This document shows positions 1-19,175 of a stretch of 20,000 nt of DNA, one piece after another; position 1 is the first letter of the stretch; each line of letters opens with the position of its first letter. The notes under the pieces were generated by a model, which was given only the letters and a program-made list of their open reading frames with translations, was not told the DNA's origin and searched no databases. The DNA comes from Pseudovirgaria hyperparasitica (taxonomy: Eukaryota): NCBI GenBank assembly GCA_010093815.1, contig ML996581.1. One strand, written 5' to 3'. The position numbers and the translations under genes were made by a program.

Positions 1-2
1 CG

Positions 3-1481
3 GCCTTAGGCACCGACATACCCTAGCATATACCAGATATACCCCTACTAGTACGATAGAAAAGGCTATATAGCGACATTACTAAGGGTAACTATATACC
101 TATCTAAAACGTAGAATATACCTAAAGGCGCACGCCGCTATAGATAGATAGAATAAAGGGGACCCCGAGAGGGGAAACCCTTCTAGATTATATTAACTAC
201 TAGGTAGCACGTATAGAGAAGGAAGCCGGAGAGGGCTAGAAGACCCTCCTATATATATTCTAGGACCTTATCCGGAATCTAAAGGGAATTATAGAGGAGA
301 AGAAGAAGATATAACTAGAAGGACCGAAGGGTAGGCTCGACCGAATAGAGGCCAGCCTATATAGAATCTAGGAGGAACTTACTTAAGGTAAGCGCCCTAG
401 TATATAGGTATAAATAGTAGTAACACCGGAGGCTATACCACGGGCCCCCCGGACCGGTAACGCGGCGTGTAGTATACGCGTCGCAATCTAGGATAAGGAC
501 ACCCTAGTATAGGTCTAGTAAGCATCCCTAAAGGACATAGTAAGTAAGATTAATAAATAAAAGGGAATATAGTTAAATATTATCGCTACTAAACTCACGC
601 TAGGAGGAGTAGTACTTACCACGATAACGAATATCGCGTAGTAGACCATCTTACGTAATCCAAACGCGATTAGTAGTATCTTTCTAGGCGCCTCTATTAG
701 GGCGGCTATATACCCGATATAGATATACTCTATACCTGTAAGCGGATAGGTTATCGGAGAAGAGGATATTACGCGGATAGAATAGTTAAATAAGTAAAAA
801 TACCCAGGGATTAAGATTATAAGAGTATGGTAGAAGAATATATAAGGGATTAAAACCAGATCGAAGGTATACTCTACTATAATAGTAGAGCTTAAGGACC
901 CCGCCCTCGCGTATTAAATTACGTAAGAGAGATTCCTAGCGGAAGGGGAGCTTCTTATAGCGGAACCATAGGATAGAGTATAGGCGATAATATAGTGCTT
1001 TAACTATTAGGGATACGGGTATACGGTATAGCGGTACTCCTAAAAGACTAGATATAGATAGTATTAATAAGAATATAGTACCTAGAAGTACCCCTACGGG
1101 ACACGAGGAGAGGGCTAGAGAGATAGAGATATAGCGAAGTACTCTAACTACGACGGCAAGTACCCGTTATAGTCGGCTACGTGCGCGAAACGTAAATAGG
1201 TTACTAAATATATCTACTTAATCCGGATAAAGGGAGTAAGGTAGCTATAAACGATGCGATCTACTACTATTCCTCTCTTTACTATAATACTACTACTATA
1301 GACTATCTCCTTATAAGGAAGCGGTTAGGAATAGTAAACTATCCCGAGAAAGCTAATAATAGGACGGCCCTAAGGAATTACTAAGGCCGCCGCCGTACGA
1401 GGATAGTCGCGTCTTAGAGGAATAAATATATAGGCCTATATATTCCCTAGCACCTAATAAGAGACCAAGATATACTCCTAA
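3..1481 (+). pseudogene. LINE ORF1 (gag-like nucleic-acid-binding protein), RIP-mutated, N-terminus outside the window
   Basis: One frame gives CFNCQGYGHTAQRC (996-1037, CX2CX4HX4C), CX2CX3HX4C (1053-1091) and CSNCDGKHPSWSATC (1140-1184, CX2CX3HX6C) after RIP reversal, plus a TWAQIAA-like motif near 400-420. The end coordinate is approximate. Confidence 0.88.
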
Positions 1482-4400
1482 TTATATAGGCAAACGTATA
1501 GTATAAATGTAAGAACTAGGCGACACTCCTTAAGGAGACCGGAGCTATAATACTCGCTATATAGGAGCTATATAAACACTACTAGACAAATAAACCAATA
1601 ACACACCTAGGATATTATATAATACACCCCCTAGGACCGGAGAGGAGAGTCCTCTTCTATGTCTATAAGTCTATCCTACTCTTATTATAGTTATATACTA
1701 AACGGGATAACCTCCGGATAATACTATACCTCTAGATAAATATCGGACCCCTCTATATATATAATATATATAATTAGAACCGATTACTTTAGGCGGATAA
1801 CATGCTTAAGGATACCACCGAGCTAGAATAACACATCCTCCTAGGAGACTTTAACCTCTATTATAGCTAGTAGAGTGGACTAACCGTTACCCGCGAAGAG
1901 CTTCGAGCTAGAGAACTACGTACCTAATACCACGGCTTTCTATACCTTCTTATACTAGTAGGATAGATTACCTAGCGAAAACATAAATAAGATAAGAGCG
2001 GATCCACACTCGACCTTACCCTAGCCACTAGATACATTTATAATAGGACTTAATACTACCGCCTAAGCCTTATATAGATAGACTCCGACCACGAATATAT
2101 AGAGACCGTAATAGACGTATCCACCCCTTAAGACTAATAAGGGCGATAGCTATAGAAGGATACTAACTAGGAAAAGTACCTAAAGGACCTAGAATCGACG
2201 ATCCTAGACCTGTCTATAGTCGACGTATCTAATGGCCCGGCCATTAACCAGGCCGTGAATATACTCCTATAGGCGTACTAGGGAGTAAGAGATAAACACG
2301 TGCCGTACTGAATATATAGACCCCTAGACCCGAAAAGTATATCTTAAGTATAAGAGTATAGGCGAGAAGTCTAGAGATTATATATACGCGTATACTATAA
2401 CTATATACCTAAAGCGTAGAATAAATAGAGAGAGACGAGAAGATAACGAGATAAGGTCCTCTATAACGAGCGATATAAATAGTAGCGTATAGTCACGGAT
2501 AGATATACACGTAATACCACTAGACTATGGTATATAGTAAAATGGGCTAAAAGCACCGCCTCCCCGACACCTATACTACTTATACCCCCCCTTATATATT
2601 AAGAAAAGACGTACTCTACGAGCCTTAAGAAAATAGAGATTCTATAAGAGGTTATGTTCCCTCTCCTAGAACCCGTAGACCTATTAGATATTAATAGTAC
2701 GGAATACCCGGAAGCCGTAAGTATCCCTAGGGAAATCACGGACGATAATATACTCGGCGCTATTAAGATACTCCCGAACGATAAAGCGCCTAGGCTAGAT
2801 AGAATTCCGAATCGATGCCTTAAGAGGACTATATAGGCGACCTTACTAATTATAGGCTATATATTCCGAGCGTGCGCCCGTATAGGATACTACCCATAGA
2901 GCTTCCGAACTATATATATAGTTATACTCCTAAAACTAGGGAAGAGTCTAAACACGCCGAAGGGATAGAGGCCGATCGCCCTTCTCTTCTACCTTAGTAA
3001 GATACTAGAAGCTATGATTACTAAGAAGATAAGTATAGTAGTATAGGTACACGGCCTTCTCCTAGTAAACCAGAAGGTGAAGGTAGAAAGCTCCCTAATT
3101 ACGGCCATTTAATACATCCTCGAGATTATCTAGACTATATAGAAATAAGGACGAGTCGTTACGCTACTCTCCCTAGACATAGTAGGGGCGTTTAATAAGA
3201 TAAACTATATAAGACTTATCTATAACCTCCGGATAAGGCGAATACCTAAGTAGATTATATGATTTATATAGTCCTTTCTCGCGTAAAGGACTACTTAAAT
3301 ATATATCCCCAGATACCGAAGCAAATATAAGGAGACAGTATACAGCATCCCATAAGGGAGCACCATCTCCCCAATCCTCTTCCTCTTCTTTATAGTAGAC
3401 CTCCTTTAGAGAATAGAATATATAGAGATAGTCGGATACACGGACGATATATACCTCCTCACGGTCGATAGTAGTACTAGTAGAACATATACACGACTCG
3501 AACAAGACCACGAGAAATACGTCTAGTAGGTAAAGCGCCACGGAGTAAAATTCGCACCTAAAAAATACTAGCTTATATACTTTATTAACCGCTATGGAGG
3601 ATGGGCTACTAGAGAGGGGGTACGTCGCCTCTAAATCGACGCCTTTATAGAACCACTAGCATAGAGTATACGAGCACTCGGCGTCATAATCAATAATAAG
3701 CTAAAATAGAGACCATAGGTGGTACACGCCGTCTCTAGAGCCCTCTAGATAGAAACCGCTATACGCCGGATTACAGTATCCACGTAGAGAATAGCCTAGA
3801 ATAAGGCGAGATAGCTATACGTCTCCCTAGCACGCCTAGCCTTTATATACGGACACGAGTACTAGTATACGGCCCTTATATAAGCTCAGCGGGTAAAGCT
3901 TAAGTCTATATAAAACCGTATACTCCGCCTTATCTCCGGCGTATATAAAGCTACTAATATAACGCTCCTCCGACGCGAGATAAACGTAATAAGTATATAG
4001 GACTTCTACTAGATATAGAGACTTATATACTTTACTAAATAATAAGTATAAGAACGTGGAGGAGATAGGGTATATATCTTCGCTGTACTACGTACACGTA
4101 TCCACGCGCATTACTAGGCCCTCTCTACTATAGAATAAACTTAAGTGTAATATAAATACTATATAGAGGCGGACTCGAGCTAGACCATATAGAAGGTTTA
4201 AAATAACCCGGATACCGTCCCGAGCTAATAGAGCCCTAAGGAGCTTAGCCGCGTTATATGGTCGTGGATCTAGGATAAATAGAGGGAGGTACTTAAAGCC
4301 TAGTAGGCCTCCTAATAGAATAGATATCTAGAATAGATCTAAGGGCCTTAGAAGGAACTAAGTAAATAGATATATAAAGGGCTAACGAAGGCCTAAGTAT

Positions 4401-4699
4401 CTATACTCCTCTAAGCCCGAATAGGCGCTATAGATCTTCTATATTACCTCTACTAGAGAGGCGTCCTAGATATATCTCCCTAGTATAAGGACTACGGCCG
4501 GAGAGGTATAATACGCCACTACCTCGCGACGTGCTCTAGCCTCTATACTCTAAGATAAGCCCTTATCCGTATAATAAGGACCTCCGACATCACGCGATAG
4601 CTTAATAAGTACTCTAAGGATGTCGCCTAATGGATGCTCGCATACCTTCCTCTCCCCTAGTTCTAGTAGACCCGTATATATATACTAGAAGAAGCCTGA
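1472..4699 (+). pseudogene. LINE ORF2 (APE endonuclease - reverse transcriptase - CCHC finger), RIP-mutated
   Basis: Motifs after RIP reversal: IIQANV, LAIQEP, LLGDFNLHH (~1840), STLDLTLA, DSDH (~2081), KAPGPDGIPN (~2783; the ORF track shows KAPRLDRIPN), WRPIALLSCLGK, LDMAGAFD, GIPQGSTISPILF, GY(A)DD at 3434, KFAPEK and C-terminal HYLATC at 4517. Start, 2654, 3434 and 4517 all lie in the same frame. Confidence 0.95.
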
Positions 4700-4741
4700 T
4701 ATATACTAGAAGAACCCCGGTATACGTCGGAAGAACCCCGG
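4679..4741 (+). repeat. 3 x 21-nt tandem repeat at the end of LINE ORF2
   Basis: tatatactagaagaagcctga / tatatactagaagaaccccgg / tatacgtcggaagaaccccgg. Confidence 0.9.
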
Positions 4742-4750
4742 GAGAACCGC

Positions 4751-4785
4751 GATTATTAGTTAAGGGTAGCCCTTAACTAATAATC
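4751..4785. repeat. Perfect 16-bp inverted repeat with a 3-nt spacer
   Basis: gattattagttaaggg-tag-cccttaactaataatc. Confidence 0.95.
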
Positions 4786-5005
4786 TCCGTACCTACACGT
4801 GCTGCCTAAGGGCAAACCATTATAATATAGACTGTAGGCCCATAGGTAGCCCCTAGGGCTATATATATATAAAGAACGAGAGGATAGACAGAGCGTAGTC
4901 ATGGATATGAGTAAGTTTTTTCTATTCGTAGGTTTCTTCTTATATAGTAGCTTAGACTAGAGGAGGCATGCGCCTATAGAGTGGTACTCTACCTAGTTTA
5001 CTAAT

Positions 5006-5026
5006 ATTATTATTATTATTATTATT
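5006..5026 (+). repeat. (ATT)7 3' tail of LINE copy 1
   Basis: Simple trinucleotide tail just after the conserved 3'-terminal block; the same tail type ends copy 2. Confidence 0.9.
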
Positions 5027-8000
5027 ATACTTATTATTATATAGGCGAACGTATAATATAAACGAGAAAACTAAGTAACGCTTCTAGAAGAGATAGAAGC
5101 CGTAATAATAGCTATCTAGGAACTATATAAACACTACCAAACCAACAAGCCAATAATACACCTAGGATACTATACTATCCACCCCATAGGCCCGGATAGG
5201 AGAGTTATATTTTATATATATAAGTCGATCCCGCTCTTAGAATGGTCTTATACCGAACGTAATAACCTCCGGATGATACTATATCTCTAGATAAGTATAG
5301 GGCCTCTCTATATCTATAATATCTATAATTAATAGTAATCGCTTATGCTAGATAATATACTCGAGGGCACCACGACGCCGGGATAATATATTCTTCTAGG
5401 CGACTTTAATCTCTACCATAGGTGGTAGGGAGACCCAGCCATCGCGAGAGAAGAACTTAGAGTAAGAGAACTATATACACGGTGCTATAACTTTCTATAC
5501 CTCCTTACACCCGTGGGGTAGATTACCTAGAGGAAATATAAATAGGACGAGAACGGGTCTACGCTCGACCTTACCCTTGCCACCGAGTATATTAGCTATA
5601 GAGTATAGTACTACCGCCCGAGCCGGATATAGATAGACTCCGACCACGAATGCATGGAAACTATAATAGACGTCTCCACTCTTAACTAATAACGTAGGAA
5701 ATGGCTATAGAAGGATACTAATTAGGATAAATACCTAGAGGACCTAGAATCGGTAATTCTAGACCCCTCTATAGTCGACGTATCCAACGGCCCAGCCATA
5801 GATAAGGCCGTGCAAGTCCTCCTTTAAGTATACTAAGCTATAAGAGATAAACACGTACTATACTAAACGTATAGACCCCTAGAAGTAAGGGGTATACCTT
5901 AAATATAAGAGTATAGAAGAGACGCCCGTAGACTATATACACGTGTATACTATATCCGGACGACTAAGGCGTGGAAAGAGTAGAAGGAAGTAGTGCGATA
6001 TTATAATAGGGCCCTCCGTAATAAACGACGAAAATAATAGCGTATAATTACCGATAAATATATATAGTAAGCCGTAGGGCTATAGCGTATAGTAAAGTAG
6101 GCTAAGGGTATAGACGCGCCGATACCGCCGCTACTAATACCTCCCCTAATATACTAAGAAAGAATATACTCTATAAGCCTAGAGAAGACGGAGATCTTAT
6201 ATAAAGTTATATTCCCCCTCCCGGAGCTAGTAGATCTATTAGATATTAATAACACTAAATACCTAGATATAATTAATATCCCCTAAGAGGTTACCGAGGA
6301 GGATATACTTAATACCGTTAAAGTACTCCCGAATAATAAGGTACCCGGACCGGATAGGATACTAAATAGATGCCTTAAACGCACTATACTAGCTACCCTA
6401 CCGCTTATTAGTTATATATTTCAAGCATGTATTAAGAACGGATACCACCCCTAAAGCTTCCGGGCTATCTATACTATTATACTCCCGAAACTAGGGAAGA
6501 ACCCTAGCTCCCCGAAAGGATAGAGGCTAATCGCCCTCCTCTTCTATCTTAGAAAGATACTAGAGGCTACGATCGCGAAGAAGATAAGCGCCGTAGCATA
6601 GAAATATAACCTCCTCCTAGTAAACTAGAAGGCGAAGGCTAGAAGCTCCCTAATTACCGCTATCTAATATATCCTCGAAGTCGTCTAGACCGTATAGAAG
6701 TAGGGACGTATAGTAACGCTACTCTCCCTTGACATGGCCGGCATATTCGATAAAGTAAACCATATAAGACTTATCTATAACTTGCGGAAGAGGCGTATAC
6801 CCGCGTGGATTACGCGGTTTATATAGTCCTTCCTCGCCGAAAGAGTTACCTAGATATATATCCCTAGATATTAAAGTAAGTATAAGAAGACAGCTTACGG
6901 CATCCTATAAGGAAGTACTATCTCCCCGATCCTCTTCCTCTTCTTTACTATAGACCTCCTCTAGAGAATATAATATATAGAGGTAGTAGAATACGTAGAC
7001 GATATATACCTTCTAGCTATCGATAATAATACTAGCTAAATATATAGACGACTCGAATAAGACCACGGGAGATATATCTAATGGGTAAAGCGCCACGGAG
7101 TAAAGTTCGCCCCCGAAAAGTACTAACTCATGTACTTTATTAACCGCCGTAGAAAATGGGCTACTAGGGAAGGCGAGCAACGCTCTAGAATAGACGCCTT
7201 CGACGAACCGCCGATATAAAGTATACACGCACTTAGCGTCATGATCGATAATAAGCTTAAATAGGGACCATAGGTAGCATACGCCGTTTCTAGGGCCCTC
7301 TAGGTAGAAGCCGCTATACGACGGATTATAGCCTCTATATAGGGAACCGCCCGGGATAAGGCACGCTAGCTATATATATCTATGGTACGACCCGCCTTCA
7401 CGTACGGACACGAGTACTAGTATATAGCCCTTATATAGACTAGGCGAATAAAGCTCGAATCTATATAGAACCGTATACTCCGTCTTATATTAGGCGTATA
7501 TAAAGCTACTAATACGGTACTACTACGACGCGAGATAGACGTTATAAGTATATATAACTTCTACTAGATATAGAGGGTAGTATACTTTACTAAATAATAA
7601 GTATAGGAACGTATAGGAAATATAGAATATACCTTCGCTACGCTACGCGCGCGAGTTAGCGTATACTACTAAGTACTCTTATATATAGGCCGGACTCGAC
7701 TATAGTATAAGTACCCGATAGAAACAGACTTAAACTAAGTAGTATAAGAGATTAAGGATAATCTAGATGCCCTTCTAGACTAATAGAGCCTTCGAGAGCT
7801 TAGACGAAGTATATAGTTATAGATCTAAGATAAGTAGAAAGAGACACTCTAGGCCTAGTGGGCCTTCTAGTAGAATAGATACCTAGAGTAGATCCGAGGA
7901 CCATAGAAGGAGCTAAGTAAATAGATATATAAAGGGCTTATAAAGGCCTAGGCATCTATACTCCTCTAAGCCTAAACGGGCGCTATAGAACTTCTATACT

Positions 8001-8302
8001 ACCTCTATAAGAGAGGCGTCCCTAACGTGTCTCTATAGTATAAGGCGTACGGCCGGAGAGGTATAATACGCCACTATCTCGTAATATACCCCGATCTTTA
8101 CACGTAAAGGTAGAAGCTTATCTATATAATAAGAACCTCTAATATCGTACGATAGCTTAATAAGTACCCTAAGGAAGTCGCCCGGTAGATAATTATATAC
8201 CTACTACTCCTCTAATTCTAGTAGACCCGGAAATATATACTAGAAGGAACCCGGCATATATTAGAGGAAACCCGGTATATACTAGAAGAACCCCTTAACT
8301 AA
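5027..8302 (+). pseudogene. LINE ORF2 (APE-RT-CCHC), copy 2, RIP-mutated
   Basis: LLGDFNLHH (~5395), DSDHEC (~5636), KAPGPDGIPN (~6338), LDMAGAFDKV (~6728), GIPQGS (~6899), GYADD at 6989 and CCHC at ~8028-8090. The end is approximate. Confidence 0.93.
8234..8294 (+). repeat. About 3 x 21-nt tandem repeat at the end of copy 2 ORF2
   Basis: tatatactagaaggaacccgg / catatattagaggaaacccgg / tatatactagaagaacccc. Confidence 0.88.
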
Positions 8303-8526
8303 TAACCTCCGTATCTACACGTGCTACCTAAGGGTAAAATAATAGTAATATAGGCTATAGGCTAATAGGTGTACTCTATGGCTATATACTTAAGAAGAAA
8401 TAAAGGTTTAACGAGATGTAATTATCGATATAAGGAAGTTTTCCCCTCTTGGGTTTCTTCTTATATAGTAGCTTAGACTAGAGGAGGCATAGGCCTATAG
8501 AGTACTACTCTACCTAGTTATATAAT

Positions 8527-8541
8527 ATTATTATTATTATT
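8527..8541 (+). repeat. (ATT)5 3' tail of LINE copy 2
   Basis: Trinucleotide tail after the conserved 3'-terminal block. Confidence 0.88.
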
Positions 8542-9268
8542 ATACTTAAATATAGATTACTTATATCTACTTTTAACTATATTAATACCTTTATTACTAA
8601 TAAGTTTATAAAGAGTTTTAGCTTACTTAAGAAGTATTATATATAGATTATTTCTAGTAGCTATTAGAACGGACGTTAAAAATTATACCTAGCTAGCTAC
8701 TATAGTTCTCTAGTTAACTATATTTATCTTACTTAATAAGGTTATATTATATAGCTATTAGTAGATATTAGTAAGATAGATATTAGTCTAGGTTAACTAG
8801 TTAATAATTCTTTTAACTATATTAATATTATATACGTAGATTTCTAATATAGTTACTTTCTTATTATCCAGCTAATCTTTCTATAGAATTATAATTAGAT
8901 TAAATCTTTATATACTAGTTTTAAAATTAATTATACGACTTAATTTAGATATAAAAAGTAATAGATTACTAATATTTAGTACTAAGCTACCCGAGTTCGT
9001 TCGCTATCTACTTAACTAACTATATAGTAAGCTAAAGTCTAAATTATTAGTAGTAGTTAGTAATATAAGTAATATAGTATATATATAACCTAATTATTAT
9101 AATTAGACTAAAATTAGATCGCCTACTAGACTCTTTATAGTTAGTTATATAGTACTTATAATCTTTAATAGTTACTTAGCTAAGATACTACTATTATTAT
9201 CTTTATATCTATATACTAGGTTAATATCTAAGGGTACTATCTAATTATAACGGTCGGTTTTATTTACT
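8542..9268. other. Extremely RIP-degraded unclassified sequence (left part of the Gypsy target)
   Basis: Very AT-rich and TpA-saturated with no recognisable motif. The TSD shows it was contiguous with 17076 onward before the Gypsy insertion. Confidence 0.6.
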
Positions 9269-9273
9269 ATAAG
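9269..9273. repeat. 5-bp target-site duplication ATAAG (left copy)
   Basis: ataag immediately precedes the LTR at 9274 and recurs at 17071-17075. Confidence 0.9.
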
Positions 9274-9475
9274 TATAATGGATGTAACTAAGGTATTACT
9301 ACAATAGTAATTAGAATATATTATAATTTAACTTAGAGAGAGTAGGGGTAGCTTATATAGGTTATAGCTTAAGTATAGTCTTAAGCAAGGTTACGTAATA
9401 CCTCTATACTAGTCTCTATCTATCCCGGCTCTATTATATAATACTAGAGATAAGGTAAAGCCGAAGTCTATAATA
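9274..9475 (-). repeat. 3' LTR (202 bp)
   Basis: Direct repeat of 16869-17070 with no indels; termini TAT...ATA are RIP products of TGT...ACA. Confidence 0.95.
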
Positions 9476-9477
9476 TA

Positions 9478-9489
9478 CCCTTATTCTCT
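9478..9489 (-). other. Polypurine tract (plus-strand primer)
   Basis: Minus strand reads AGAGAATAAGGG 2 nt before the 3' LTR. Confidence 0.7.
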
Positions 9490-9613
9490 AGGGTTATCTT
9501 AGGGACTAGCTTAGTATTTTATATAATAATAACCGGGCTTAGTTAGATCTCGGGTTTACGGTCTTTATATCGTACTATATAATAGTAGTAGGGCTATATA
9601 TTACGTCTAGTAA

Positions 9614-9842
9614 GGTAGCCGTATCTCGTAGTCGTGTCTCGGTCGTATAATAGAGGAGGGTTCCTCTATAATGGCGTCGTTAGTTATATAATCGCATAGT
9701 AGTAGTATCTTATAGTCGTGTTCTAGCGGTTACGTGGTAGAGGAGGGTTCCTTACCTTATAGCGTCGTTAGTTATATAATCGCACGGTAGTAGTATCTTA
9801 TAGTTATATTCTAGTAGTTATGTGGCGGAGGTAGGGTATCCT
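9614..9842. repeat. About 2.5 copies of an 87/88-bp tandem repeat in the element's 3' region
   Basis: Units beginning gaggagggttcc at 9653 and 9740, a degenerate start at 9828 and a partial unit at 9614-9652; shared core gcgtcgttagttatataatcgca. Confidence 0.88.
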
Positions 9843-11040
9843 ATATATAAACCGTGTATCTTATTTATTATTACCCGTTTTTAGAACCGGTTCTTCTCTA
9901 GACTAGGGGTTAGATAGTAGTAGTAGAGTAGCTTACGCACGGCCCGCGTTTATTATTATTATTATCTATTTTAGAACCGGCTCTACCCCGGCCTATACGA
10001 CTTTCTCTAACGTAAGTATATAGGTCCTATATCTAGCGACTTTCTTCTTCTTTAACTACTATTACATCTACTATCTTAATACCGCATATTAGCTATTATA
10101 ATATTAGTAAACTCGTATACTACCTCGTAGCTTCTATACTATTATTATAAGTACGCTAGGCCTAAATAGGCCTATTATAGAAGCCGGCACCGTCTCGGCG
10201 GTAGCTATAGATACTAGGGGTTAAGACCCTAACGATTAACGCGCGCCTAGGCGCTAGAAACTACCTAACCGTACCGTGAGTAGGTCCTATCCCTACGCCG
10301 TTCCTTATACTAACTAGATAGACTATTCCTTCTACCACCTCCTAATAGACTAAGCCTATTTACTATATAGAGCTATATATTATAGAGGGTAACTTATTAG
10401 AAGATAAGTATACTAAGTCCGTATACTTTATATATTATATATATATAAAGGCCTTAGAGAAGACTAGGGTGCTTAAGTACGTGCCGTCTCTATACTATAG
10501 TAGCGCCTACTAATCTAGAGCGTAGCTATAAGCCTAGCCGTAGTACTAACTATATAAAGTATTATATATTAAAGGGGATCTACTTATAGAATACTAAGAA
10601 GCTTACTATATACCTAGCCCTATATAAGGCGTAGAGCCGCCTTAAGAAGTTTATATATAAGTCGGTTAATAATAACTTTAGTTATATAATAGACCGTAGT
10701 AGTTACGGCCTAGACCCGACTAAGCCTTCGTCCGGTAAGTAGCCACGTATAAACTCTAAGTTCTACTATCTATATAAGGACTATAAGTCTAACTTAGAGA
10801 TTACGTATATTACCTACCGTAATACTAGTATTATTAGTTAGGTCTCTATAACGCCCTATCGCGGTACTATTATAGTAATTAAGATACTATATTATAGTAG
10901 TAGTAACCGTAGGTAGCTTAGTAGCGTAACTTACTAGATAAATTAGTATATATTATATAACGAGGCCTAAACAGGCGAGTTACGTACTAATATTAGCGCC
11001 CTATAGATATATATTTAGTTAGTCTAATTACTACTATCTT

Positions 11041-11728
11041 AATACGTAATATAGGGTTTAATATAGTAGATCGCTTCTAGCCTAGCACGCCTAGCCGAGT
11101 CGCCGCCTTACTAACTTCTTATCTAGACCGTTATAGAGAAGGAGGATCCTTATTTAAGTAGTGGTCGCCCGCGTTACCCTTAGCTAAGCGGCCCTAAGGA
11201 GTCGCCTACCTATAGCCCGCGCTATTACTATACTACCCCCCGCTAGCTCCCTATTACTACCCCTCTATAGAAGGTCTCGCCGTCGCCGCGCTATCCCTAT
11301 ATCTCGCCCCGCTACCGTAACCCGTTCTAGCGCCACTCTCGCTCGCTAGAGCGCCGTAGCCGGTCCCCCGACCGCTATAACCAGTCCCCTTACTACTATA
11401 ACTAGTCCCTCTACTACTATAATCGTTTCTATAAGTATTACTACTAATTCTATAACCGCTAGTATCGTACTATTAAGGGTTATCGCCCGTTACGTTATTA
11501 CTAGTTACCGTCTTATAGCTACTATAGCCGCCCTAACGAGGTATATAACTCCCCCTTACTACTAAGCTAGATTAATAGTTACTACTACCGCTAGGAGCCG
11601 GCCTAGGGGAGGACTAGATAACTAACCTTATAGTTAGGATTTATAGTTAAGGACCGTACCGGCCCTAGCGCCGTATAGATCTAGGGTAGAGCTAGAAGAA
11701 TAATCTTTTTATATCTTAAGGAGGATAT
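11041..11728 (-). pseudogene. Putative accessory gene inside the Gypsy element: Gly/Tyr/Gln-rich low-complexity protein; 3' extent uncertain (may continue toward ~9600)
   Basis: TATAAAA at 11780-11774, an A/C-rich leader, AT(G>A) at 11728, a candidate 46-nt intron at 11659-11614 (GTACGG...CTAAC...TAG), then a frame reading GGYGIGGNTYGNDYGGGGTGYGGRGTGYGGRGTGYGAPASESGAGTGYGGGAGYGDS after RIP reversal. Confidence 0.55.
11356..11421 (-). repeat. 3 x 21-nt repeat encoding a YGGRGTG-like unit
   Basis: Plus strand gtagccggtcccccgaccgct / ataaccagtccccttactact / ataactagtccctctactact. Confidence 0.8.
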
Positions 11729-11835
11729 CGGTTTATTATTAGGTTACTTAGGTACTAGTATTTAGTGTTTAGTTTTTATAGAATCTCTACTCTTATATTA
11801 GGTTATTAGGGCCGCTATAGACCCGTAATAGTAGA

Positions 11836-14800
11836 TTAATATCTTTATTTAGGGATACGCTAAAGTCGTAGGCCGTTATATAATCGCGCGCTACTATACT
11901 AGGCCTTAAACCTATCTAGTACCTCGGTATCCTCTACGTCCTTAAGTAGTACCTATATTAGCTATAGCTAGCCCTTCTATTTTATAAGTACTTACCTCTT
12001 ATTTCGCCTATATACGTTTTTCGCCTAAAGGATGTCCTCGACCTTATATTTAGTAATATCCTTATTAGCTTTATTAAGTTTAAGTACCGGGCCTAGGCGG
12101 GTATCTAGCCGCTTCTAGCTAGGTAGAGGGTCCTCTACGGCGCGCTTAACTAGGCTAATATAGACTATCTTATAAAGGTCCCTAGAGAGGTTAAGGGTTA
12201 CTATTAGGGGGGTAGATTAGATAAGAACCCTATACTTAGTCTATAGCTAGTCGAGTTTTTAGCTTAGATAATTAGTCTTTACGTTTCGGAGTAAGAACTA
12301 TACTATATTACTAATCTTAAAGCGTTTAGCTAGGCGGCGTAACTAGTTAGCTAAGTCCTAGGAACGTTACTTAGCCTAGGTAATAGCTATCTATACTAGG
12401 GTAGTACTATTATAGAGGTACTTAAGGAAGTTTATAGCCTAGTCTTTCGCCGAGGTCATAGAGGTATTAGAAAGTAGCTATCGCGGTAATAGTTTAATAT
12501 AGTATCTATTTAGAAGTAGGTTTAGTACTATACTAGTTACTAATAAGATACGGTTATTTAGGGTAAGCTAGTATACTAGGAGGTACTCTAGCTAATTAGT
12601 TTACTTAAAGGTTACTATAATATAAAGTACCGCCTAGACCTTCTAGTTTACTCGCTCTATACTACCGTTAGTCTATAGATAATAGACTATAGAGAGGTTC
12701 TAGTACACGTCCGTTATAGAGTAAAGGGTTATCTAGAACTACTCTAGCTAGTCCGAGCCCCGGTTAGTAATAATAGACTATAGAAACCCCTAGAAACGCT
12801 ACTATATATCGCGGAATCGCGCTATATAGTCCTTAGCCGCTATAGAGATTATCGCCTCTAGCTAGATAAATTTTAAGAGCTAATCTATAATAATAAGTAG
12901 GTACTAGGGCTATAATAGGTCCGATTAGAGGAGGTTAGTTATAAAGTCTATAAAAATCTAGGACTAGAAATAGTCTAGTATCGGAAGCGGCTAGAGGAGC
13001 CTAGGGGCCCTATACTAATTTATATAAGCTCTATAGTAGTTATAGTTCTATATGAATTACCGGATATCGGCGTATATACGCTTCTAGTAGTATTCCCGCT
13101 AGATAGCTACGTACATCTTATTCTTACTAGGGTAGCCTATAAGGGGGGAAGCGTGGGACCTCTAGATAATAGTTATTATAAGTGGTTCCTATTCGGGCAC
13201 CTAGATAACTCTCTACTACGTAAGTATCCCGTATACTAATATAGCGTAGTCTATAATCTATTTAGTTATAAGCGCCTCCGGTAGAAAGAGGCGTACCCCG
13301 CCTATTATAGCCGTATAGTAGACCTAATATACTAGGATAGACTAAGCAGCTTAGTCCTAAAGCTCCTAGAGATAGGGATTAGTAAAGATACTTTATCCCT
13401 AGGAGAGGCGATTCTCCCTAGAGTAGATACTTATAGATACTATTCGGATAGCTCGTAGAGCTATAAGCTACCCCTATAGAAGGGACTTCTTAGACGAGTT
13501 CTAGTTACGGCGGCTAAGGGCGTCTAGGCGAGCCGCCTAGGATCCTAGCTAGTATACTAGGTTATAGTTAAAGAGTATAAGCTAGTTAGACTATCGCTAC
13601 TACCATAGGATAAGAAGGTAAGACTTAGTAAAGTACTTAAGGTTCTTATAGTCTATATAGATTATAAAAGGGTAGTAAATACTCCGAAGCTTAGGTTTCT
13701 ATATCTAGAGATACTAAACTATAGTAAGGAGCTCCTTATTATAGATTATATAGTTCTACTAGACGGCCGTAAGGGCCGCGGAGTAGTAGACTATTAGGTG
13801 CTAAATACCCTAAACCCTCTAGGATAGGTACCTACCTATTACGTGGCTAGAGTAATCCGCCTTAACTATTATATTACGCGTCTTATTCTAGAATTAGAGA
13901 GTAGATTCTATAATAAAAGTATTCTTAAGCTTAGTAAATACGCGGTTCTTAGTTAGGCCCTAGTAGAAGGCTACTCTAGCCCTAGTAAGGGTATAGAGTA
14001 GAGCCGCTATAGTAGAGAAGTCGGGAAGAAAGTTATAGTAGAAGTTTATAAATCTAATAAATTACTAGACGCCCTAGACCGTGGTTAGGGGCTTCTAGTC
14101 CCGGATTATAGTAATTTTCTCTAGGTTAGGGCGGATTAATTTACTAGCGGTAATAATATACCCTAGATACTAGACTTCCTTAGTAGCGAAGCGGCACTTA
14201 GTAAGGTTATAGTAAAGGTCCGCTTTAGTAAGGAGAGATAGAATAGTCTTTATAGTGGCCTAGTAGTCCTCTAGTATACCTAGGGTATAGATAAGGATAT
14301 CGTTAAGATACGCCGTATAGGTTACCCCTAGGACCCCGCTTAGTACCCTATTAATATAGCGCTAGAAGAAGGCCGGGGTACTAGAGAGACTAAACGGAAG
14401 TATAGTCTATTTAAAGAGGCTGAACCGGGTATAAAAAGCTATCTTATATTTATCCCTAGCGGCTACCCGTAGCTTATAGAATACCGCCCGAATATTAACC
14501 TTACTAAACTATAACGCGTTACTAATAGTATATAGGGTTTCGTATATTAGAGGAAGCGGGTATTAATTCTACTCTATAATACCGTTAAGGGCTCTATAGT
14601 TAATATATAGCCGCTATTTCCCTCCCGGCTTAGAGATAAGTAATACTAGCGCCCTAGCCGTAGAGAAGCTAGCCCGTATCTAACCCTTATCTATAAGATC
14701 CGTAAGCTAGCGGCGTAGCTCTACTAGCTACTTCTAAGATATAGTATAGAGAGGTCTCTAAGGGAGGTTTACTAGGGTCCCTACCGGGGTAGACTTAATA

Positions 14801-15600
14801 CGGATATAGTAGTCCGCGCTCCTCTAGTAGGGGGATAGCGCTAACGCCTTCACCTTATTAAAGAGATTACGGTAGATATATAGCTTTAATAGGAGCGGGC
14901 GCCTATTCTCCGTAAGCTTAGACGTGTTCTAGTTAGATATCGGAGGTAGTAGGGGGAGTATAAGCTATAGAAGGCGGGTAACATCGCGGATACTAGTAGC
15001 GACTACCCGTCTACGGTAATAAGCTATCTCTAGAGCCTCTATAATACGACCCTTCTTAGTAAGTATCTAAATACGCGTTAGGCGTATATAGGTATTTATA
15101 TCCGGGGCTATAAGGCCGTGGGCGCGGTAGAGCGTAATCCTATCTACCCGTATATTAATAACGGCGCCGGCCTAGTAGAGCTATAGGCTCCTAAGAATAA
15201 GATTCTAGTCTAGTCTAGACACTACGTAGGTAGAGAGGCGCTATCTCTATCTAGTAATATCGTACTATATAGTAACGACTTCCGTAATCTCCGGTCCTAA
15301 TACTCTATTAGTAGTAAGAGCTACTTAATAACGTAGAACTAAGATATACGACTTAGCTACGTCCTCTATAAGGGATAGGCTAACTACCACGAAATACTTA
15401 TACCCTATATCTACTAAAGCGTCTATATACTTTCTATTCTAGAGGAATAGTAATATAACGGGTAGCGGCCCATCTATAATCTAAGTAGATATACTATCCT
15501 CCGGGTCGGAGCCGTAATCTTAGTTACCCGTGGCTTTATTCCCTACTAAATATTATAATATCCCCTAACCTAGACTCTAGTAAGGAACTATACTTCCCCC
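11836..15600 (-). pseudogene. pol: Gypsy pol polyprotein (protease, RT, RNase H, integrase, chromodomain), RIP-mutated
   Basis: After RIP reversal: ALVDTGC (15420-15400), NLILGSPWL, WRLCIDYRALN (~14610), PFGL, YL(D)D at 14310-14299, RNase H ADCSG / IYDKELLAIV / DHKNL / PDALSR (13870-13510), integrase H-H-C-C (13160-13035), IDFITDLP, TDRG, AYHPQTDGSTERVN, and chromodomain YEVEDIL...VLIKWKGW..PTWVPLEDV (12050-11900). PR, YLDD and chromodomain share one frame. Ends are approximate. Confidence 0.95.
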
Positions 15601-16868: not shown

Positions 16869-17070
16869 TATAATAGATATAACTAAGGTATTACTATAAT
16901 AGTAATTAGGATATATTATAATTTAACTTAGAGAGAGTAGGGGTAGCTTATATAGATTATAGCTTAAGTATAGTCTTAAGTAAGGTCACGTAATACCCCT
17001 ATACTAGTCTCTATCCGTCCCGGCTCCGTTATATAATGCTAGAGACAAGGTAAAGCCGAAGTCTATAACA
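16869..17070 (-). repeat. 5' LTR (202 bp)
   Basis: Direct repeat of 9274-9475; ends ...taACA at 17070 followed by the TSD. Confidence 0.95.
16948..16954 (-). promoter_or_regulatory. Candidate LTR TATA box
   Basis: Minus-strand TATATAA about 20-25 nt upstream of the transcript start predicted by the self-primer (16929); TA-rich motifs are common after RIP. Confidence 0.45.
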
Positions 17071-17075
17071 ATAAG
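17071..17075. repeat. 5-bp target-site duplication ATAAG (right copy)
   Basis: Matches 9269-9273. Confidence 0.9.
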
Positions 17076-18185
17076 TAGCTTATCTTTAATTATCTAGGGC
17101 TTAGAATAAGTCTTCTCTAAAATCTACTAATAATATAGTAGTAATATTACTACTCTACTAAGTATAAATTAATTAAATATAATTATAACTTTATTATTTA
17201 AGATACTAGAAGCTCTATATAGTAGATATCCTTTCTAAAACTATTCTTCTTTTAAGAAGATAGCTAGCTAGTAGATACTAACCTTACTCTTCTTTATAAT
17301 CTATTATTCTATTATTATAATAATTAGTAACTTTATTTAGTTAGATAGTTAGATATTTATAGATAGCTAAGTTATATAGTTCTCTATAATATTAATAGAA
17401 TAATCTATATAAAATAGCTATAAATTATATTTTAAAAGGTACTATTATTTAGTTATAGAGAAATTACCTATTACTAGTCTATTACTAGAGACCTATATAG
17501 ATAGAACTAATAATAAAGGGTATTCTATTACTATATATTCTAGAAGAATTAGTAGAAAAGCTTTTAATAAGCTAGAAAACTTCTTAGAATCTACCTAGTC
17601 TACTATTACGTTATATAGATCTATATAGAATAGTTAGTTAGCTAGTTTAATATTTACTTATATCTAAATCTTTTCTATAGACTAATAGTAGTACTTTTTA
17701 TCTATCTTTAGATATAGATATAGAAGAATACTAGTTAGTTTAGATTAAGTATAACTATTATAAGTTTACTAAATTAATATACTAGATCTTATAAGAATAA
17801 AGCTAGTTATATATAGTAATTAGCTAATATTATAGAATATTTATAGATTAGTAACTATAAATAGTAGGCCGTATAGTTAGCTTAACTATAGTACTTATTT
17901 TTAGTTAATAGATCTAGATCTAGTACTAATCTTTAAGTAAATAATATAAGGAAGTACTTAATAGTTATATATCTATAAAATACTTAGTAAATATATATAT
18001 TATAATATAGCTTATTATAATAGATATTAACGGCTCTCTATCTATAATAGCTAGGGGTAGATAGATATTATAACTTTAAGTAGTTATTAACCTAGTTAGA
18101 CTTCTACTAGACTATTTCTATAAGCTTATCTAAGGTTATATTCTTTAACTAAGTCTAATAGAAGTATACTTTACTATATCTACTA
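17076..18185. other. Extremely RIP-degraded unclassified sequence (right part of the Gypsy target)
   Basis: Very AT-rich with essentially no CpA or TpG and no recognisable motif. Confidence 0.6.
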
Positions 18186-18391
18186 ACCGAATTCTAGGCC
18201 ATTGCTATATACTATTATCTAGTATTTAATAGTTAGTTTATAATTACGTCTAATTTAAATATAGCGTTGATTATAGATAGTTATTACTATCTACTTATTT
18301 ATAATAGTAAGTAGGTGTATGTCTTCTCTATAGTTAAAGCGGTCGAGTTCCTTTGGAAATGGTTCTAACTACTCGATAGATATTACTAGGT

Positions 18392-18754
18392 GTACTACTA
18401 TAATATAAGATAAATATAATAAATATATAGAACTTCTACTAGATATAGAGAGTAATATATTTTACTAAATAATAAGTATAGAAATATATAGAATATATAG
18501 AATATATCTTTACTATATTATATATATAAGTTAATATCTATTATTATATACTACTATATATAGACTAGACTTAACTATAGTATAAGTATCTAATAATAAT
18601 AGACTTAAATTAAGTTCTATAAGAGATCGAGAATAATCTAGATATCTCTCTAGACTAGTAGAACCCTTAGAAGCTTATATAGACTATATAGTTATAGATC
18701 TAGAATAAATAGAGGAAAACTCTCTAAGTCTATTAGATATTCTAATAGAATAGA
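18392..18754 (+). mobile_element. Third fragment of the same LINE family (post-RT part of ORF2), more heavily mutated
   Basis: Aligns to 7517-7879 with the same offset (10875) at both ends, e.g. acttctactagatatagag and tttactaaataataagtatag. Confidence 0.9.
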
Positions 18755-19175
18755 TGTAAGAATAGGGTTATTAGATAGTAGTGTAGTTAGATAGAATAAT
18801 AGGGTGTATTCTATCATAGAACGAATTACTACCGAACCCTTTTAGTAGGAATCTAAGAGTATATATATAAAGGGACGCCGATCTATCTAGCACGTGACTA
18901 TTTACCGCCCTTCCCGCCACCTTCTAACCCTATTAGCTAAGGTACGTGCGGATTAGGTTATACCTAAGACTAAGTCCTAATAATTATCCCTTCCCTCTAG
19001 GAAGCTACCCTTAGCGACCTAGATTATTATCTATCTCTATATCCCTATCCTAAGTCTCGTAAGACCTTAGTCGTTCTCTATACTTCGTCTTAGATATTCG
19101 CTAATATTCGCCGATCTAAGATTTATATAAGCGTTTTTCTAATAAACTAGAGTTCGTCCATTCTAAATTCTTATA
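18755..19175. mobile_element. Putative LTR (~421 bp) of a second, different LTR element inserted into the LINE fragment
   Basis: LINE homology stops abruptly at TGTAAGAAT; the matching terminal inverted repeat ATTCTTA(T<C)A is at 19167-19175; TATA-like (19123-19130) and AATAAA (19141) motifs. No partner LTR or TSD in the window. Confidence 0.5.

Follow-up and report, generated by a model that had tools for sequence, protein, structure and literature searches.

Fungal chromoviruses such as Tf1, MAGGY and similar elements are generally organised as long terminal repeat (LTR)-gag-protease-reverse transcriptase-RNase H-integrase-chromodomain-polypurine tract (PPT)-LTR, flanked by a 5-bp target site duplication (TSD). 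Grande1, RIRE2, Retand, PvRetro13 and Boty are listed as having antisense open reading frames (ORFs), of unknown function, that sit between pol and their 3' LTR (PMC7264820). The Boty element of Botrytis carries brtn, an additional gene in that interval that reads antisense to gag-pol and has no assigned function (PMC8365987, PMC7264820, PMC4227169, PMC5987419). An 'additional ORF with unknown function' is drawn in some fungal elements (PMC2864245). The DNA analysed here, called the window, is a stretch of 20,000 nt of contig ML996581.1 from Pseudovirgaria hyperparasitica (assembly GCA_010093815.1). Its minus strand carries a Ty3/gypsy chromovirus degraded by repeat-induced point mutation (RIP), with two 202-nt LTRs and a TSD on each side. 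This element shares the domain order and the 5-bp TSD of Tf1 and MAGGY, but has 2.3 kb with a probable antisense gene between pol and the PPT. The plus strand of this cargo (the ~2.3 kb between the pol end and the PPT), at about 10.3-11.6 kb, is very probably a RIP-killed accessory gene antisense to gag-pol and convergent with pol, a statement that concerns the identity of the gene and not its function.

The gene is like brtn in its host element, a chromodomain Ty3/gypsy element of an ascomycete, and in its position and orientation. It differs in being dead from RIP, and the likeness to brtn is drawn from these described features. The plant aORF-3R genes (Grande1, RIRE2, Retand, PvRetro13) are alike in position, in orientation and in being conserved within families; they differ in belonging to the plant kingdom and in including non-chromovirus lineages, and they too are likened by position and orientation (PMC7264820). 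By the features that define aORF-3R, the window gene lies between pol (~11857) and the LTR (9475), is on the strand opposite to gag-pol, and is conserved in 4/4 relatives. Genes of this position and orientation have been described before, and the window gene is a further, dead example.

Relatives were found by scanning metagenome contigs with P0005, the pol protein closest to that of the window. Ten loci with a GC content of 0.47-0.62 were obtained, comprising five element families (L001; L002; L003 with L005 and L006; L004; L007-L009) plus L010, a pol fragment. Gag and pol were intact and un-RIP'd in L001-L004. Each of these four full-length, distinct relatives carried one gene antisense to pol and convergent with it, in the same place and orientation (4/4), and in L002-L004 the antisense gene ended 100-200 nt from the pol stop. 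The spacing from the pol stop to the 3' terminal repeat was 1.6-2.6 kb in L002-L004; an extended post-pol region is typical of this clade. Exact terminal direct repeats were present in L002 (108 nt, 1-108/6466-6573), L003 (127 nt, 1-127/6946-7072) and L004 (71 nt, 1-71/7507-7577). The L002-L004 contigs are of element length, their terminal repeats resemble R regions of full-length transcripts or partial LTRs, and the antisense introns are kept in them.

The antisense gene was interrupted by one intron in L002 (5576-5526, 51 nt), two in L003 (5978-5914 and 5354-5304; 65 and 51 nt) and three in L004 (6758-6714, 6494-6444 and 6118-6067; 45, 51 and 52 nt). Donors were GTGAGT, GTAAGT, GTAGGT, GTACGT or GTAAGA, branch sites were CTAAC or CTGAC, and acceptors were YAG. 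Removal of the introns brought back both the reading frame and the homology: in L004, splicing joins GKYP to VFHQEFYRL, and the resulting GKYPVFHQEFYRL matches the uninterrupted GTYPVFSDEFCRL of L003. An intron before the third cysteine is common to L003 and L004 in position and codon phase. The spliced ORFs of the three intron-bearing relatives were 312, 366 and 614 aa long, and the antisense gene of L001 contained one in-frame stop. From N- to C-terminus, the encoded protein consists of an acidic EGDSxDE motif (G.F..EGDS.DE), a six-Cys module, the motif 'FA.HPAVRRAFR', a helical segment 'EF.RL...YE.AL' and an Arg/Ser/Pro-rich tail. The spacing C-X2-C-X11-C-X7-C-X2-C-X6-C was kept in all four of L001-L004. 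An accessory antisense gene is accordingly described, with its exon-intron structure, from at least four divergent fungal chromoviruses that have kept it.

The corresponding features of the window are as follows.

10276-10317, plus strand: candidate 42-nt intron GTGAGT..TACTAAC.TAG, holding the only GTGAGT of the plus strand.
10385-10405, plus strand: EGNLLED, a possible RIP'd EGDSxDE motif (weak; seen by eye, without statistics).
10482-11620, plus strand: probable core of the antisense accessory gene inactivated by RIP, a single frame of 379 codons that contains 28 stops and has an approximate 3' limit.
10482-10583, plus strand: six-Cys module C-X2-C-X11-C-X7-C-X2-C-X6-C, with codons at 10482, 10491, 10527, 10551, 10560 and 10581 that now read TGC, TAT, TAT, TAT, TAT and TAC.
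10662-10805, plus strand: part that aligns with the antisense protein of L004, SYI..R..DP.KP..GK.P / FY.LY..Y.S.L (BLASTP E 1e-7).
11160-11600, plus strand: Tyr/Arg/Pro/Ser-rich tail (Y 23, R 15, P 15, S 14 %).

RIP converts TGY (Cys) codons to TAY (Tyr) codons. The six cysteines conserved in L001-L004 are represented in the window, at the same spacing, by one Cys and five Tyr codons, as RIP would produce. When either Cys or Tyr was allowed at the six positions, a search of all six frames of the 20 kb matched the spacing at a single place, 10482 on the plus strand; under a Markov null, 0.03 matches are expected per 20 kb of random sequence. Downstream of the module, the same frame reads 'YLALYKA' (compare HPAVRRA), 'SYIIDRSSYGLDPTKPSSGK.P' and 'KFYYLYKDYKSNLEI'. 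The BLASTP alignment of the window plus frame to the L004 stretch (E 1e-7) contained a 17-residue gap that falls exactly at the translated in-frame intron of L004. Spliced L004 protein, searched against the six window frames, matched at 10617-10802 with E 1.3e-6 (runner-up 0.094), and fully RIP-simulated L004 matched at 10527-10802 with E 9e-6. Among hidden Markov models (HMMs) run against the six-frame sequences, a RIP-simulated profile scored 11.0 bits, a weak score at the correct place (10524-10835), and hhalign to the four-relative profile gave the same register with E 0.0078. Over 1.1 kb, one frame holds the Cys module together with the helix motif and the R/S/P-rich tail. The tail is Y 23, R 15, P 15 and S 14 % in composition, against R 23, S 19 and P 16 % in L004, and many of its Tyr codons could be former His or Cys codons altered by RIP.

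Several results weigh against this assignment. A plain HMM of the relatives scored -0.8 bits on the window, though at the right place, and the hhalign probability was only 5%. BLASTP of the window against L003 gave nothing, a script search of the window with the L001-L003 proteins gave no match below E 0.09, and tblastn with the unspliced ORFs of the relatives gave nothing in the cargo; unlike those unspliced queries, the later match in the window needed spliced or intron-spanning L004 sequence. In the window copy, no start, N-terminal exon or stop could be placed with certainty. EGNLLED and the core are in different frames, which implies an intron or a 1-nt indel between them. Beyond the window, the only matches to the family profile among 5.8 billion proteins were the query proteins themselves and a hypothetical protein of Drechmeria coniospora (E 4e-5), which has EGDS and FAARPQLR motifs and lacks the Cys module. 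In the fifth family, L007-L009, only an R/S-rich antisense ORF was present, with no significant likeness to the other families. L003:5137-5633 and L006:3598-4094 (95% identical) differ at 24 positions, of which all 24 are C>T or G>A and RIP-like, three of them turning Gln codons into stops; the substitution comparison therefore reflects RIP and not selection. The link of the window to the family rests mainly on L004, together with the Cys spacing, the position and the orientation.

No protein named BRTN was returned by the profile search, which is limited by shared words. Pfam gave no family for the antisense protein in 12 ORF pieces of the relatives. In the ESM Atlas, the nearest clusters were hypothetical proteins of Ascomycota at 0.86-0.88, under the level that counts, and a search of the PDB by sequence gave a single chance-level match to a chloride channel.

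The plus-strand segment 10735-10797 (GTAAGT..TCTAAC..TAG, 63 nt) was considered as an intron and rejected, as it lies inside the conserved coding stretch FY.LY..Y.S.L. Since an equally strict intron string occurs there within coding sequence, such strings arise by chance, and 10276-10317 stays a candidate. The window copy is dead and without a function of its own.

Other copies of the element were sought in contigs from the two DNA runs of the organism (X1 and X2), using the internal region of the element at 80% likeness. Matching contigs numbered 1686 and 2452 in the two runs, and 30/30 bins of the internal region were covered. Differences between contigs and window were mostly T>C and A>G, which shows that other copies retain the un-RIP'd base; at position 10562, for example, a C was found in 11 X1 contigs and 15 X2 contigs. 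Two contigs skipped 110 and 129 nt within the repeat-rich tail. The contention that the post-pol DNA is part of the element, and not a one-off insertion, was borne out by this coverage: the cargo belongs to the element family and does not stem from a single insertion event. Contig depth was ~875-1740 at 10956-11449 against ~3500-10900 over pol, and was higher at 9968-10955; depth is not equal to copy number. Two runs with the same species label from a different study (X3 and X4) gave 0 and 1 matching contigs at 80% likeness, which does not prove absence. The sole X4 contig (1053 nt, high depth) has only 96 nt in common with the window (9509-9604, with 18 differences), and its flanks are unrelated.

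The first-pass annotation had proposed a third gene of another kind in the cargo: a separately transcribed gene on the element's sense strand, preceded by a TATA box (11780), starting at a RIP'd ATG (11728), split by a 46-nt intron (11659-11614) and encoding a Gly/Tyr/Ser-rich, RGG- or prion-like protein. The frame concerned is given here.

11075-11667 (limit ~11075), minus strand: G/Y/S-rich frame, which reads the antisense Arg/Ser tail in reverse complement and is in frame with pol.

All the strings on which this proposal drew are present (TATAAAA at 11780-11774, ATA-TCC-TCC at 11728, and GTACGG..CTAAC..TAG, 46 nt, at 11659-11614), the frame has 17 stops in 222 codons, and the region is found in the other copies as well. 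The TATA and intron signals, however, occur at chance level. TATAAAA was counted 7 times per strand in the window, and loose GT..CTRAY..YAG intron-like segments had 41 starts over both strands (40 kb), of which 7 were on the sense strand of the cargo. Stops across 10482-11620 numbered 28, 26, 55, 63, 41 and 28 per 379 codons in the six frames; a low stop count does not mark out the G-rich frame, as two other frames are equally low. The frame is in phase with pol, so no intron is required to enter it, and the segment 11659-11614 is unneeded as a join between the start and the G-rich frame. The peptide 'MSSSRYEK...' was a guessed de-RIP reading, and the actual DNA reads ISSLRYKKIILLALP*IYTALGP.

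Sequence searches gave the proposed protein no relatives. With the post-chromodomain and G-rich frame as query, phmmer against 1.84 billion representatives returned 2 matches, both to unrelated repetitive proteins, and none of the six cargo frames matched a Pfam family. Behind pol, L001-L004 have 102 ORFs of at least 50 aa, of which 48 are sense and 54 antisense. At E<1e-3 there were 5 cross-element matches among them, each between antisense ORFs (best 4.5e-19), as against 0 between sense ORFs. An RGG- or prion-like Gly-rich protein was for these reasons abandoned. The other strand of the region is homologous to the conserved spliced gene, and a sense intron would vanish from the genomic RNA. 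Taken together, these points make a sense-strand gene of this description extremely improbable. What holds of the proposal is that a third gene lies in the cargo, present and intron-containing in the intact relatives; it is neither on the sense strand nor Gly-rich, and no support was found for the proposed strand, reading frame, start site, promoter, intron or type of protein, the conserved gene of the relatives being read on the opposite strand. The G/Y/S-rich sense frame is the mirror image of the Arg/Ser-rich tail that the antisense gene encodes. In RIP'd DNA, chance produces TATA strings, intron-like strings and low-complexity frames that look open, and what resembles a gene can be the mirror frame of a real one.

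The shared frame of pol and the G/Y/S-rich stretch would also fit a C-terminal extension of Pol, reached by readthrough or by a later stop and forming a disordered integrase tail. Pol runs without a frameshift over 3.7 kb in the window, and an in-frame ORF follows the pol stop in L001 (5123-5617, 165 codons) and L004 (4933-5682, 250 codons). These two post-pol ORFs probably mirror the antisense Arg/Ser tail; where a GC-rich antisense frame codes for Arg and Ser, the frame that mirrors it is expected to stay open as a by-product. Pfam Chromo was above its cut-off at the matching C-terminus of L002, L003 and L004, and pol stopped 7-17 residues past that domain in all three. The C-terminus of the window pol can be aligned with the pol of relatives (P0005, P0006) as far as 11857, and P0005 and P0006 finish 33 and 14 residues beyond the aligned end. 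The following ORFs are out of the pol frame in L002 and L003, and 3/5 in frame against an expected 1/3 is not significant. The sense ORFs moreover show no sequence conservation. An extended Pol is on this evidence very unlikely, and the antisense accessory gene is preferred.

A third possibility sees in the post-pol DNA an extended non-coding 3' region, serving as regulatory repeats, as an antisense long non-coding RNA or as a source of small RNA, and in the likeness of the antisense ORFs a relic without protein function. The in-frame stop of L001, the 88-nt tandem repeat at 9651-9847 and the near absence of members in annotated protein collections are in keeping with this, and the comparison of L003 with L006 is uninformative on selection. 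Against it, ORFs of 312-614 codons are open after intron removal in 3/4 relatives, the pol of which shares no more than 50-64% identity with P0005. The six-Cys spacing does not vary, the introns have canonical signals, and an intron is also conserved in position. A purely non-coding region is judged improbable.

The orientation of this gene bears on its introns. Introns in the sense of an element's RNA are spliced out before reverse transcription, a principle on which retrotransposition reporters marked with an intron are built. In the sense genomic RNA, introns of antisense orientation go unrecognised; they are not removed, and are copied into new insertions. The antisense orientation thus allows introns to be inherited through retrotransposition, and the oddity of a sense intron kept in a retroelement, to which the first-pass annotation had drawn attention, disappears: the introns of the conserved gene lie on the antisense strand. 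The gene is a concrete case of how a retroelement can retain introns. In active relatives, the antisense gene may be transcribed from a promoter of its own near the 3' LTR and then spliced; its product may bind zinc and act in the nucleus, with a Gal4-like DNA-binding module of Zn2Cys6 type and a helix behind it, and may regulate transcription of the element or a replication or targeting step. This sequence of steps is put forward tentatively and as a whole. A regulator encoded by the element is the most likely function of the antisense protein, and is likewise proposed with some reserve.

The nature of the N-terminal half was approached through predicted structures. AlphaFold2 models were made from 6-7 sequences, and gave a predicted local distance difference test score (pLDDT) of 65 for full-length L001 (82-88 in the Cys region) and of 61 for the L002 domain. 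Foldseek returned five PDB rows for the domain model, all weak, of which four were Zn2Cys6 DNA-binding domains (PUT3 twice, Leu3, GAL4). A second look at the Foldseek results for the full-length L001 model gave PPR1 with a root-mean-square deviation (rmsd) of 1.5 Å over 33 residues and Leu3 with 1.9 Å over 34. In a fold search independent of Foldseek, 16/48,161 chains reached Z>=2, and 5 of these 16 were Leu3, GAL4, Pho7, PPR1 and 1cld, all of them Zn2Cys6 domains. The Zn2Cys6 domains of Gal4, Ppr1, Put3, Leu3 and Pho7 share with the antisense protein six Cys in two halves that each contain C-X2-C, then a helix, and were the commonest of the weak fold matches. The Zn2Cys6 family is restricted to fungi, and its canonical spacing is C-X2-C-X6-C-X5-12-C-X2-C-X6-8-C. 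The antisense gene differs from genes of that family in being borne on a retrotransposon, and its protein has an Arg/Ser tail in place of the usual regulatory middle-homology region.

Other observations count against a Zn2Cys6 reading. The models rest on 6-7 sequences and reach a pLDDT of 61-65. Foldseek gave no match at E<=0.001 for the full-length model, and the fold scores were all low and none significant (Foldseek E 2.6-9.3, Z 2.2-3.0, rmsd 1.5-2.3 Å over 33-41 residues). Pfam Zn_clus (PF00172) had no match at E<=1 in the 12 ORF pieces of the relatives. The first loop is of 11 residues in 4/4 relatives where the canonical spacing has 6, the other spacings being in agreement. Because of the absent Zn_clus match and the 11-residue first loop, the antisense protein is not assigned to the Zn2Cys6 family. 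The N-terminal half is nevertheless most likely a zinc-dependent module for DNA binding, Zn2Cys6-like and with a helix after it, a reading favoured somewhat above even chances. In a literature search that left most subscription journals outside its reach, no paper was found that ties such an antisense gene to a Zn2Cys6-like module. The six-Cys module, which may be a DNA-binding domain of Zn2Cys6 type, provides a testable idea on the role of antisense accessory genes.

A stronger proposal is that a clade of ascomycete chromoviruses carries a spliced antisense, Gal4-like zinc-cluster gene with a serine/arginine (SR)-like tail, unrelated in sequence to brtn, which acts as the element's own transcription factor. 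This is regarded as rather unlikely. If it were true, the protein would bind the LTRs of the element or host promoters and so tie retrotransposon activity to fungal gene regulation, and the antisense orientation would be a device that lets the element keep introns.

The remaining anatomy of the window element is listed in the order of its minus strand.

17071-17075, no strand assigned: TSD CTTAT (minus-strand reading), upstream of the 5' LTR.
16869-17070, minus strand: 5' LTR, beginning with TG and ending with TA (= RIP'd CA).
11857-15567, minus strand: pol frame from protease to chromodomain, without a frameshift and with TAA/TAG stops only; best relative P0005, E 7e-219.
14152-14637, minus strand: reverse transcriptase (Pfam RVT_1, E 8.8e-16).
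13696-13947, minus strand: RNase H (Pfam RT_RNaseH_2, E 9.3e-11).
13045-13182, minus strand: integrase zinc-binding domain (Integrase_H2C2, E 6e-4, under the Pfam cut-off).
11908-12048, minus strand: chromodomain-like pol end, aligned to the part of the relatives that is Pfam Chromo; not detected by Pfam in the RIP'd copy.
9651-9847, no strand assigned: tandem repeat with an 88-nt unit in 2.2 copies, on the stretch that separates the 3' LTR from the antisense gene.
9478-9489, minus strand: PPT AGAGAATAAGGG, before the 3' LTR.
9274-9475, minus strand: 3' LTR, pairing with the 5' LTR.
9269-9273, no strand assigned: TSD CTTAT, downstream of the 3' LTR.

The domains RVT_1, RT_RNaseH(_2) and Integrase_H2C2 follow one another within one frame in the order expected of a chromovirus pol. 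The LTRs, the CTTAT TSD, the PPT at 9478-9489 and the ~2.3 kb from chromodomain to PPT inside the element had all been recognised from the first, and were confirmed. The entire window is strongly RIP-mutated, with TpA/ApT of 1.5-2.35 and (CpA+TpG)/(ApC+GpT) of 0.03-0.36. The cargo contains 475 TA, 12 TG and 12 CA dinucleotides, and 482/483 of the stops in its six frames are TAA or TAG, with one TGA; the presence of only RIP-type stops is therefore true of any frame there.

In the L007-L009 family, a UbiA prenyltransferase gene (E 5.8e-54; L009:7956-9626, L007:15753-17420) adjoins the truncated 3' part of the element. The L007 and L009 contigs are consequently genomic DNA, and the element is cut off within the antisense gene. 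A pogo/Tc5-like DNA transposon gene lies within the pol of a relative in the opposite orientation (L007:10749-12332), and was also seen in L008, L009 and L010; in L007 it matched Pfam DDE_1 (E 3e-39), HTH_Tnp_Tc5 and HTH_psq.

AT-rich stretches lie on both sides of the chromovirus in the window, with a GC content of 0.20-0.30 at 8501-9500 and 17001-18500. A second RIP'd repeat occupies 1-8550 as a tandem duplication with a period of 3555 and 78% identity. It pairs 1471-1770 with 5026-5325 and 2885-3184 with 6440-6739, and a third, partial copy is found at 18392-18755.

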